Source: Dehalococcoidia bacterium
Lineage (GTDB): Bacteria > Chloroflexota > Dehalococcoidia > Lucifugimonadales > UBA3495
DNA length: 64,000 bases
NCBI GenBank assembly: GCA_965219395.1
Contig: CBDCNN010000002.1
Location: 2,247,547 to 2,311,546, forward strand
Direction: 5' to 3'
Shown: piece by piece, positions 7,879-11,284 of the stretch
How the letters are laid out: every line of letters starts with the position of its first letter
How positions within the stretch are numbered: the stretch's first letter is position 1
Notes under the pieces: generated by a model
Databases searched by the model: none
The model's input: the letters and a program-made list of their open reading frames with translations, nothing else
Told to the model about the DNA's origin: nothing
Program-made: the position numbers and the translations under genes

Positions 7879-9461
7879 CAGCATAAATGTGACTCTGTTA
7901 TGCCGCCACTGTATCAGATGTTGAAGCAGTGAGAGTCGGCTGGGACCTCCGCCCTGGGGGACCGTCGGCATCCATGTATTTCTTGATGGTGGCTCTGTGG
8001 ATCCCCAATTCCCTCTGGATCGCCCGCAACGACATCCCCTTGCGCCTGGCTTTCTGAATCGCCATCCACCTCTCCTTCTGCAGGAGGGTTGGTTTGCGCG
8101 GAGAGACCGTTGCGGAGTTCGAGGTGGCAGGCCCACCGCCAGTCATATCCGCCTGATGTTCCTCATCCGCTGCCCTTGAGTCCAGTGGCTTGAGAGTCGC
8201 TGCCCAGCGCTGGCCCAAACCGTTGGCACCGGAGGGCGGGACAACAGGAGTCGCGGTACCTCCCTTTCCGTTGCGAAGGAATACCGGGCTGGGAGGCGCC
8301 TCCTGGGCGTTGATGATGCGTCCCTCGTGGCGCACTCTGAGCTGGCCGTCCAGTCCTTCCAGAACCTCCACAACCGCGCCGGCATAGCTGGGGCGTTCCG
8401 GCTCTGGCAGCAACTGTAGCGTATGCAGTTGGAACTTCACCGTATTGTCCTTGGCCACCTTCCTGCGGTGCTTGAAGCACAGGACCTGTTCCAGGCGCAG
8501 ACCCGTCTCCAAGGGCCGGTACGCGGACTCGGAGCATTGCGGGGGAACCCGGAAGCGCCGGTTGTATCTCGGCAGAAACTGCTCCAGCACGCCGTTGGCG
8601 TCGCCGATGCTGCTGGCACCTGCCAGACGGAGTTCGGTAACCAGCCGGTCCTGGAAAGTTCCTGCAGTTCGCTCCACGCGACCCTTTGCCTGGGGCGAGA
8701 GAGCGAATATCATCTGTATCCCCAGCTCGTCCATGGCCCGGCTGAACTGGGTCGCCGTTCCGGGAAGACCGGACCCCGGTGTGTGCCTGAAGACCCCGTG
8801 CCGGTCGACGTAGAGGGCCACAGGGATGCCAACGCTCTGCACCAGATCCTGGATCATCAGGAAATAGGTGTAGGCCTCCTCCTTCTCGCAGAATAGGGCG
8901 CCCGCCACTGTGCCGGTGGCGTCATCCACCGCGATCAGCAACGTGAACGGCGGAACTTGGTCCCCCAACCACGGGTGGTAGCTGCCGTCCATCTGGATCA
9001 ACATTCCCTGTTGGGGCATCCGCTGGCGGCGTACCCGGTGCTTGGGCGGACGCCTTCGCCGTGGACTCGTCAGCCCGGCGTCGACCAGGATACGTCTGAG
9101 CGTAGTCCTGCCGAGGTCAATTCCCTCGCGTTCGTTCAGCAACTCACTGAGATGGGTGTGGTTGGCCCCTGAGTACTTGGTGCGAGCCAAATGGACCACA
9201 CCGTACGCCACGGCCTTGGGAGTCGCATTGGGCGCTCCGCGACCTCTGTGGCCGTGGGCAACTGCGGCAGCTCCCGTCTCCCGGTAGGCCGCCAGAAGGC
9301 GCCTGGTGTGCCGGGTGCTGACACCCATCAGCGTGGCCGCCTGATCCAAGGTCATGTGCTCTGCCAGCAAGCTGTTAAGAACCTGTAGTCTCGTCTGTTC
9401 CTTGGGAGTCAACGTCACATTCTCCCACATTCTCCATGGAGTGAATGTGACATTTATGCTG
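7879..9461 (-). mobile_element. IS element with rve-type transposase (family uncertain, ISNCY/IS481-like)
   Basis: Terminal inverted repeats CAGCATAAATGTGAC (7879-7893) and GTGACATTTATGCTG (9447-9461), 14 of 15 matched. Single 510-aa ORF fills the element. Confidence 0.7.
7898..9430 (-). CDS. DDE (rve integrase-fold) transposase with N-terminal HTH
   Basis: N-terminus ...LTPKEQTRLQVLNSLLAEHMTLDQAATLMGVSTRHTRRLLAAYRETGAAAVAHGHRGR.... Core ...LIQMDGSYHPWLG...LIAVDDATG...ALYVDRHGVF...LSPQAKGRVERT. Confidence 0.75.
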   Translation of the reverse strand: MWENVTLTPKEQTRLQVLNSLLAEHMTLDQAATLMGVSTRHTRRLLAAYRETGAAAVAHGHRGRGAPNATPKAVAYGVVHLARTKYSGANHTHLSELLNEREGIDLGRTTLRRILVDAGLTSPRRRRPPKHRVRRQRMPQQGMLIQMDGSYHPWLGDQVPPFTLLIAVDDATGTVAGALFCEKEEAYTYFLMIQDLVQSVGIPVALYVDRHGVFRHTPGSGLPGTATQFSRAMDELGIQMIFALSPQAKGRVERTAGTFQDRLVTELRLAGASSIGDANGVLEQFLPRYNRRFRVPPQCSESAYRPLETGLRLEQVLCFKHRRKVAKDNTVKFQLHTLQLLPEPERPSYAGAVVEVLEGLDGQLRVRHEGRIINAQEAPPSPVFLRNGKGGTATPVVPPSGANGLGQRWAATLKPLDSRAADEEHQADMTGGGPATSNSATVSPRKPTLLQKERWMAIQKARRKGMSLRAIQRELGIHRATIKKYMDADGPPGRRSQPTLTASTSDTVAA

Positions 9462-9850: not shown

Positions 9851-10059
9851 TGGTAGTGGAGATGATGGCGATGCCAGGGGCCCTGGAGGTCCCTTCTACC
9901 ATCCGCTCAACTTTGCCGTCGAGGGTCAGAATTCCTGGAGTCTCGCCGCCCTCGACCTGTTCTTTATCGGCCTGCTAAGCCACAGTCCGAGCTGAACCCC
10001 GTTTTGCCGGCTGCACAAGGGCGGGCAACAGTCGAAAAGGCGACACCGTTCAGGTCGTG

Positions 10060-10529
10060 CTACAGACGCTCCAGTAACTTTGCAATCTGATCGGTGTGGT
10101 TCATGTCGGGTTCCCACTCGCAGATCACATTGTGTTCGTCGATGACAACTGCGGGCCTGCGCAACCTTTCCCGTCTGACGGGTCTTTGACGTACCTCTCT
10201 CCATCGAGAGCGGACATGCCTAGCTCAATGCCTACACGTCGATCAGGGTCGTTCAGGACCGCGAACGGAAGCTGCTCTTTCTCGACCCACTGGCGTGCGG
10301 CATCCAAGCTTCCGTCATGGATTCCGAACAGCACGACGTTCTTCTCTGTGAACTCGGCAGCATGCTCTCGGTACCCAAGAGCCATGCGGGTTCAATTACC
10401 ACCGCCCGGACTCGTGAAGAAGTACAGGAGGACCTTTTGTCCGCGAAGACTGCTAAGGGATACCGTCTGTCCATCGCTGGACTGAAGTGTGAAATCGGAA
10501 ACCGTCTTCCCGATGTAAGTTTCCATCAT
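10060..10529 (-). pseudogene. peroxiredoxin-like (AhpC/TSA-redoxin fold) gene with in-frame TGA at the active-site Cys position (possible selenoprotein) and a 3' frameshift
   Basis: M(M)ETYIGKTVSDFTLQSSDGQTVSLSSLRGQKVLLYFFTSPGGGN-TGA(10392-10394)-TRMALGYREHAAEFTEKNVVLFGIHDGSLDAARQWVEKEQLPFAVLNDPDRRVG.... The C-terminal RRPAVVIDEHNVICEWEPDMNHTDQIAKLLERL* is in another frame (shift within about 10165-10200). Hairpin at 10360-10387 lies just 3' of the TGA. Confidence 0.6.
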
Positions 10530-10723
10530 TCCCTTCCTTTCCGGGGAGACTTAATAGAACCTACCCACGCATGATATTGGGCTGCTGGCTCAATCCGAGC
10601 TTGGCCTCGGTGAGGTCCGTGACGCAGAGGGTCGGCGCAAGTTACGAGGAGGCGGTCCGTACCCGGGAAGCATCAGACCACCCCGCCATGCTCCGTGCCG
10701 GGGCTGCAATTTTCACTGAAGCC

Positions 10724-11284
10724 CTATCCGTCCACCTGTTGGATGGTCCAGCGGCTGACCTCCAGGCGCTTGGCCAGTTCCCGCTGGCTCACTCCCCTCG
10801 ACCGCTCCTCCCGGATGTACTCCCGCTGCTGTCCGGTCAGGCTGGGCCGTCTTCCAGGGAAGCGGCCTTCCGTCCGTGCCTTGGCCTGGCCGGCGACGGA
10901 GCGCTCCCTGATCGAATTCCGCCACCACTCTCTGAAGGCAAGCACCATCTGGAACTGCAGCTTCCCGTTGGCCGTGGCCGTGTCGAAGTCCTCCGACAGG
11001 GACCGGAACTCCACTCCTGCATGGTGCAGGCCTTCGATCACCTGCAGCCCGTAGGTCAGCCCCCTGGAGAGCCGGTCAATATGGGTGACCACCAGGGTGT
11101 CCCCCTCGGCCACCAGATCCAGCAGTTCCAGGAGGCCGCTGCGGTCGTCCTTGGCCCCGCTGGCCTCCTCGGCCCGGATGTTGCCCATGGCGCAGCCGGC
11201 GTGGACCAGCCGCTCCACCTGCAGGTCCAGATTCTTGTCCTCGGGCTCTCTGACCGAGACCCTGGCGTAACCGTACAGCGTCAT
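10724..11284 (-). CDS. serine recombinase (resolvase/invertase family)
   Basis: MTLYGYARVSVREPEDKNLDLQVERL...GDTLVVTHIDRLSRG...; C-terminal HTH ...GVSQRELAKRLEVSRWTIQQV. Confidence 0.85.
   Translation of the reverse strand: MTLYGYARVSVREPEDKNLDLQVERLVHAGCAMGNIRAEEASGAKDDRSGLLELLDLVAEGDTLVVTHIDRLSRGLTYGLQVIEGLHHAGVEFRSLSEDFDTATANGKLQFQMVLAFREWWRNSIRERSVAGQAKARTEGRFPGRRPSLTGQQREYIREERSRGVSQRELAKRLEVSRWTIQQVDG

Follow-up and report, generated by a model that had tools for sequence, protein, structure and literature searches.

The gene for an AhpC/TSA-type protein at positions 10529 to 10060 (minus strand) of the window, by which we mean the whole 64,000-nucleotide stretch of Dehalococcoidia bacterium DNA analysed here, carries an in-frame TGA and, further downstream, a change of reading frame. 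The locus therefore raises the question of whether this TGA is a selenocysteine (Sec) codon or a trace of decay, and whether the gene, as it stands in this genome, could still give rise to a complete protein.

Layout of the locus and its reading frames

On the minus strand, read from 10529 to 10060, the TGA at 10392-10394 lies between MMETYIGK...LLYFFTSPGGGN and TRMALGYREHAAEF..., exactly where the preliminary description had placed it between two parts of one open frame. Translation of this frame gives MMETYIGKTVSDFTLQSSDGQTVSLSSLRGQKVLLYFFTSPGGGN-TGA-TRMALGYREHAAEF...DPSDGK and then GCAGPQLSSTNTM-stop, while the C-terminal portion, RRPAVVIDEHNVICEW...LERL followed by the stop, sits in a different frame, in which RRPAVVIDEHNVICEWEPDMNHTDQIAKLLERL-stop is read. 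The C-terminal remnant (10060-10158) contains the catalytic-type Arg (RPAVV) together with the last strand and helix, and the original stop is TAG at 10060-10062 (minus strand). Intact relatives encode products of 152-153 aa, and the window copy is 88-97% identical in amino-acid sequence to the intact single-frame copies of congeners. Relatives in the 15-copy DNA alignment have ATT, ATA, ATC or ACG in place of the first ATG (10527-10529), and the second ATG is the probable true start. The features of the locus are as follows.

10060-10529, minus strand: probable pseudogene, whole, of a Prx-like (AhpC/TSA, BCP/PrxQ-like) selenoprotein (translation; PF00578, 2.7e-22)
10530-10573, minus strand: conserved 5′ flank with Shine-Dalgarno-like AAGGA (homologous to other copies as far as 10573)
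10526-10528, minus strand: probable true start codon, second ATG (DNA alignment of 15 copies)
10392-10394, minus strand: predicted UGA Sec codon in the peroxidatic-Cys column, motif TSPGGGN-U-TRM (TGA in 124/128 loci)
10360-10387, minus strand: SECIS-type hairpin (pairing, covariation, synonymous constraint)
10387-10383 with 10364-10360, minus strand: lower stem of the hairpin, followed by a bulged G at 10382
10381-10375 with 10371-10365, minus strand: upper stem of the hairpin, with the loop GUA at 10374-10372
10159-10166, minus strand: 8-nt insertion GGTTGCGC in the minus-strand reading (absent in 14/14 congener copies)
10060-10158, minus strand: out-of-frame C-terminal remnant, RPAVVIDEHNVICEWEPDMNHTDQIAKLLERL-stop (frame-3 translation)
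9940-10059, minus strand: conserved 3′ flank of a module of about 0.63 kb (blastn of the window against 55 loci)

The UGA codon and the hairpin downstream

For the column of the in-frame TGA we collected 128 homologous loci from genome and metagenome DNA, and found TGA in 124 and TGC in 4 of them, the TGA being kept across lineages down to about 50% identity. The loci came from MAGs of the Dehalococcoidia and the SAR202 cluster, from other MAGs and from metagenomes, and the family sources include one Caldilineaceae MAG and one Syntrophobacterales MAG; the SAR202 bins among the loci are presumably those of the sponge-microbiome binning study PMC5649159. In this clade the gene occurs in marine and in sponge-associated members. 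Of the 24 congeners sampled, 15 have intact single-frame copies, and every such copy contains a single TGA. At the same column Cys is found in the homologues P0013, P0015, P0016, L095, L118, L138 and L145, and BCP/PrxQ proteins of solved structure have their peroxidatic Cys in this alignment column, so that the catalytic position proposed for the TGA from the single sequence holds in the family. Among the proteins found by sequence search, dozens are 105-aa fragments that start with MALGYRE and are gene calls beginning after the TGA; others are N-terminal fragments that stop at ...GGGN, or proteins of the full 153 aa in which the column is C, W or R. In public metagenome gene calls the column is R in P0014 and S in P0046.

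The hairpin GCAUG-G-CUCUUGG-GUA-CCGAGAG-CAUGC (10387-10360) begins 4 nt 3′ of the TGA, in full agreement with the coordinates reported for it before; its upper stem begins 10 nt after the UGA, and the G and U of the apical loop are nearly invariant. When the window hairpin was folded as a single sequence the result was not significant (z = -1.84; 15 of 200 shuffles folded as well), and an Rfam scan of 10250-10480 at E <= 10 gave a chance match to sroE only and no SECIS family. Among 37 distinct Sec-form sequences, 89% of the cells are paired, against 31-51% with the 3′ partners slid by 1-3 columns, and compensatory double changes are found at 4 hairpin pairs; the observed paired fraction, the number of double-change cells and the covariation score were reached by none of 500 shuffles. 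The upper stem is paired at 7/7 positions in 29 and at 6/7 in 9 of 38 distinct Sec-form hairpins. In the lineage of L098 and L144 a U-A pair is exchanged for C-G and the protein reads ...YQG... in place of ...YRE..., so that the helix is kept at the cost of a change from RE to QG. The lower stem is looser, 10-13 of the 37 sequences being unpaired at three of its pairs, and RNAalifold recovered 6 upper-stem pairs only; for these reasons only the upper stem is taken as established.

Codon choice in the same segment was analysed with 32 representatives of less than 90% DNA identity. Codons +4 to +9 after the UGA are almost frozen (Ala GCT in 30/32, Gly GGG in 30/32, Tyr TAC in 32/32, Glu GAG in 28/29, Leu as CTC or CTT), whereas Gly, Ala, Leu, Pro and Arg columns that are just as conserved in other parts of the gene have a codon entropy of 1.6-2.4 bits. 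The 4 Cys forms retain 3-5 of the 7 upper-stem pairs and use other codons (GGC for Gly), and their folding energies range from -5.6 to -8.2 kcal/mol, compared with a mean of -12.5 kcal/mol for the Sec forms. Judged from these alignments, the hairpin is under selection at the RNA level, in the pattern expected of a bacterial SECIS, and what had been called SECIS-like from its shape is backed by the covariation and the synonymous-site constraint among relatives.

In E. coli fdhF the SelB-binding SECIS hairpin is part of the coding sequence and follows the UGA immediately. The hairpin described here resembles it in its place within the coding sequence, in the start of the upper stem-loop about 10-11 nt after the UGA and in the conserved G and U of the loop; the sequence is different, and the loop is predicted to be of 3 nt (GUA) and closed by two G-C pairs. 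The redox-active residue of the intact copies is most likely selenocysteine encoded by UGA: as in fdhF, the hairpin would recruit SelB with Sec-tRNA(Sec) to the ribosome, and the UGA would then be read as Sec.

Two other explanations of the TGA have to be considered. It could have arisen by nonsense mutation of a Cys-peroxiredoxin gene that is now dead, with the hairpin there by coincidence, i.e. decay and not recoding; the insignificance of the hairpin by itself is what such an explanation would predict, but a chance lesion is hard to reconcile with TGA at the same column in 124 of the 128 loci and in lineages as distant as about 50% identity, with covariation and synonymous constraint that coincide exactly with the hairpin, with the lack of the hairpin in the Cys forms, and with the Sec machinery genes carried by this genome. 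The comparative data already contradict it, and we regard it as highly improbable. The TGA could also be read as Trp or another standard residue under an altered genetic code, as the W at this column in P0003, P0021, P0026 and P0036 might suggest. The DNA of P0026 (locus L099), however, has TGA, and its W is an artefact of gene calling with translation table 4; the relatives with a true sense codon carry Cys and not Trp. Within the window the code is standard, since TGA is the commonest terminator of long open frames (24 of 48). A code in which TGA stands for Trp was rejected on these three grounds, and the chance that any altered code applies here is close to nil. On the aligned sequences, then, we take the TGA to be a conserved Sec codon and not a product of decay.

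Fold, active site and relation to known peroxiredoxins

The read-through product matched Pfam AhpC-TSA (PF00578) at 2.7e-22 with 79.4 bits (cut-off 26) and Redoxin at 2.3e-16, in support of the original assignment to the AhpC/TSA type. In a phmmer search against PDB sequences, VLLYFFTSPGGGN-U-TRMALGYRE was aligned to the Burkholderia BCP 5enu, with the Sec on its peroxidatic Cys (TPGC) and with R122 of RPAVVID on the R of ERSTFLID, the catalytic Arg strand of 5enu. R122, P123 and A124 are invariant in 38 homologues, and the Arg is out of frame in the window copy. An AlphaFold model of the intact congener protein, built with the 38-sequence alignment, reached a pLDDT of 92.9 and has the Sec following strand 32-37, where helix 44-55 starts. 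The top PDB matches of this model in Foldseek were BCP/PrxQ proteins (2a4v, 5enu, 3drn, 3hjp and 5epf; TM about 0.80); ResA-like oxidoreductases and 2-Cys Prx came next.

The canonical PxxxTxxC motif is not kept in the family, which has T-S-P-G-G-[GN]-N-U (TxxxGxxU), with Thr at -7 and an invariant Gly at -3 from the Sec; because of this replacement, peroxidase chemistry is not assured. No Cys is invariant anywhere in the 38 family members, so the family offers no candidate resolving Cys. From these features the family appears to be a BCP-like 1-Sec protein, probably with peroxidatic chemistry. The protein would act as a 1-Sec peroxidase or as a thiol-dependent reductase, in which the Sec would attack the oxidant with the aid of the conserved Arg of RPAVV; since there is no conserved resolving Cys, we propose that the selenenic acid would be resolved by an external thiol partner.

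With the BCP/PrxQ proteins (5enu of Burkholderia ambifaria, 3drn or Sulfolobus Bcp1, 2a4v or yeast Dot5; NF006960) the family shares the AhpC-TSA fold (TM about 0.80), a length of about 150 aa, the active residue at the N-terminus of helix 2 after the LLYFF strand, and the conserved Arg in the RxxxxID strand. It differs from them in having Sec for Cys, in the replacement of both Pro and Thr of PxxxTxxC, in the lack of a resolving Cys, and in an identity of only 21-25%. PrxU, the Sec-containing peroxiredoxin of Eubacterium acidaminophilum (Sohling et al. 2001, as cited in PMC13188914), has the motif TxxU; the present family is like it in the bacterial AhpC/TSA fold, the Sec at the peroxidatic position and the SECIS just 3′ of the UGA, but belongs to another subfamily, with GxxU and without TxxU. 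Published catalogues include Prx (TxxU) (PMC2398784; PMC13188914), the marine metagenome families Prx-like 1/2/3 (UxxC) and Prx-like UGC (Zhang and Gladyshev 2008, PMC2398784), and the Prx-like thiol:disulfide oxidoreductase and AhpC/TSA cd02970 UxxS families (PMC13188914), in line with the earlier remark that Prx-like selenoproteins are known in bacteria. Like the marine families, the one described here is marine, metagenome-derived and of thioredoxin fold, has Sec at the redox position and has mostly rare Cys homologues; its U-T-R-M has neither Cys nor Ser at +3, a distinction drawn from the motif descriptions. In particular, the UxxC by which GOS Prx-like 1/3 are defined (PMC2398784) is absent. 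The kind of gene is known, Sec-containing Prx-like proteins being an established class, and, judged by its motif, the subfamily looks undescribed.

The intact congener protein scored 63.9 bits against NCBIfam NF006960 (cut-off 140), and none of the scored family members reached any NCBIfam cut-off, the read-through product likewise remaining below all models. Matches to NF040737 (PrxU) were found for 25 of 38 members and are weak (best E 1e-7), as are those of family members to the WAxxUGC and SelL-related selenoprotein models. Since no NCBIfam model reaches its cut-off and the selenoprotein models match only weakly, a 105-aa fragment is named 'peroxiredoxin family protein' in the GenBank record P0084. 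Public gene calls split the family into fragments of 45 and 105 aa, or show W at the Sec after a table-4 call, and one cluster of 105-aa fragments has 512 members.

The insertion, the Sec machinery and the surroundings of the gene

The change of frame in the window copy is caused by eight extra bases, GGTTGCGC (10159-10166, minus strand), between GGGAAA and AGGCCC. They are absent in all 14 aligned intact copies of congeners, which read ...DGK RPAVVIDE... in one frame, and a comparison of all 40 genomes of the genus shows the 27-nt insertion junction in this one only. The frame is shifted after codon 121, and translation would end at the TGA 10125-10127 after ...DGKGCAGPQLSSTNTM, giving a predicted product of 133 residues without the invariant Arg-Pro-Ala strand and the last helix. 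Even with the Sec codon left aside, no continuous frame leads from the start to the family stop in this copy. Apart from the insertion, the gene matches the intact consensus at 98-99% identity and shows no lesion. The preliminary description was correct in noting that the 3′ end lies in another frame, but the one-base shift that it suspected near a T-run is in fact this 8-nt insertion. It had left the choice between a decaying gene and a homopolymer error; the former is favoured here, and a homopolymer slip at the T-run was rejected, as the lesion consists of 8 nt of mixed sequence. For this site programmed frameshifting was likewise rejected, as no relative has the insertion and nothing is conserved there.

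Our main reading, with a probability of about 0.75, is that a genuine selenoprotein gene has become a pseudogene at this locus, where the 8-nt insertion shifts the frame and the native upstream region is partly replaced. A second copy of the family was not found in the genome, the next best AhpC-TSA genes being at most 30% identical; as the broken copy was the only one, the genome has most likely lost this function.

The genome is a MAG of 2 contigs (4.25 Mb) with 96.6% completeness and 9.3% estimated contamination. The search for Sec machinery, recommended earlier as a check, yielded a tRNA-Sec (65.3 bits; SeC with anticodon TCA by ARAGORN), selB in a 624-aa open frame (320-344 bits), and two full-length selA genes, C1:1479033-1480373 (541.9 bits) and C2:2691489-2692829 (540.5 bits), nearly equal in score and one on each contig, which represent either a real duplication or redundancy of the MAG. 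The selD gene is also present but is broken in the assembly (L020, contig 1, 1409877-1410828, minus strand): it has a Sec-UGA of its own (HCAG-U-AAKL) and is split into two frames. Extra stretches of 19 and 12 nt (CGTCTCCGGCCTGTTCCGC and CACCGGAGAAAT) flank 10 native nt and are absent in 7 aligned congeners; they contain the 7-nt inverted repeat TCTCCGG/CCGGAGA. In all 24 congeners searched, selD is intact. The broken selD points either to ongoing loss of the Sec trait or to an assembly artefact, and Sec insertion may not be operating in the organism at all. Were the selD lesion genuine, the organism could at present insert no Sec, and its selenoprotein genes would be expected to decay in turn; were it an artefact, the 8-nt insertion would come under equal suspicion.

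Other TGA-containing genes were observed in the same genome. At least four further AhpC-TSA genes with a single in-frame TGA look like Prx or Prx-like selenoproteins (C2:1640245-1640613, C1:1101730-1102110, C2:1339008-1339373 and C2:1857865-1858176). A neighbouring copy, C2:1640918-1641285, falls into two frames (1640918-1641151 and 1641136-1641285). Several matches of CMD/AhpD-like type also contain one TGA (C1:336360, C2:2632299, C1:531337 and C1:910874).

The surroundings of the window copy are rich in mobile elements. Directly upstream lies an intact-looking serine recombinase gene (10724-11284, minus strand; Pfam Resolvase, 2.1e-33), and downstream a 510-aa transposase-like ORF with an HTH domain (7898-9430, minus strand); in another genome (L050) the Prx gene has an 88%-identical copy of this ORF on its upstream side. 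IS630- and IS110-type transposases are nearby. By blastn against 55 loci, the homology of the window copy to other copies covers 9940/9965 to 10573 only, most matches ending at 9940-9965. In 41 close copies the common block is about 0.63-0.7 kb and comprises the gene with about 115 nt upstream and about 100-130 nt downstream. Since about 115 nt upstream are common to the others and the homology of the window copy stops at 10573, the upstream region here has been partly replaced.

The block was found in at least 17 upstream and at least 20 downstream contexts (L049-L090), often beside IS630-like, IS21-like or resolvase genes. Copy number per genome goes up to 3, with near-identical sequences, and is 0 in 9 of the 24 sampled congeners. 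The ends of the module show no terminal inverted repeats or sharp borders, conservation fading gradually, and breakpoints of the module coincide with IS insertions. A conserved operon partner was not found in 9 divergent loci, in which the neighbours differ, and distant relatives are single genes with unrelated neighbours. Many copies in public assemblies are broken by frameshifts or internal duplications, and we read P0033 as a fusion to the N-terminus of an IS21-like transposase.

The rival to pseudogenisation is that the gene is intact and functional and that the 8-nt insertion is an artefact of assembly or consensus building, for instance from mixed near-identical copies or strains. The lesion is private to this assembly, the remainder of the gene is otherwise unbroken and nearly identical to the intact consensus, and the MAG has its estimated contamination and the selA duplicated on both contigs; the similarly odd small insertion in selD could indicate that the artefact is systematic. 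Yet no homopolymer lies at the insertion site, and consensus errors do not typically add 8 unrelated bases. Most of the conserved upstream region is lost as well, homology ending 44 nt 5′ of the first ATG instead of about 115 nt; the copy is located in an IS-rich, visibly decaying stretch, and many broken copies are known from independent assemblies. An artefact is therefore unlikely in our judgement, and we infer that the lesion is biological and not an assembly error.

Two linked readings go further. The Sec-Prx module may be mobile or IS-shuffled cargo, spread and amplified by mobile elements in SAR202/Dehalococcoidia, a reading suggested by its up to 3 near-identical copies per genome, its at least 17 flanking contexts and its presence in 15 of the 24 sampled congeners; and this genome may now be losing the use of Sec. 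The loss of Sec use is read from the broken selD and from selenoprotein genes that are starting to decay, in a genome where tRNA-Sec, selA, selB and several TGA-containing Prx genes are intact. We put forward both readings only tentatively.

The window copy itself has no functional importance, being a dead copy in a graveyard of mobile elements. If the broken selD is real, the genome would be a useful snapshot of the loss of the Sec trait. For the family, recognition of the subfamily would correct mis-called entries, including the 512-member cluster of 105-aa fragments, and the marine selenoproteome would gain a BCP-like enzyme of 1-Sec type without the canonical Pro and Thr.
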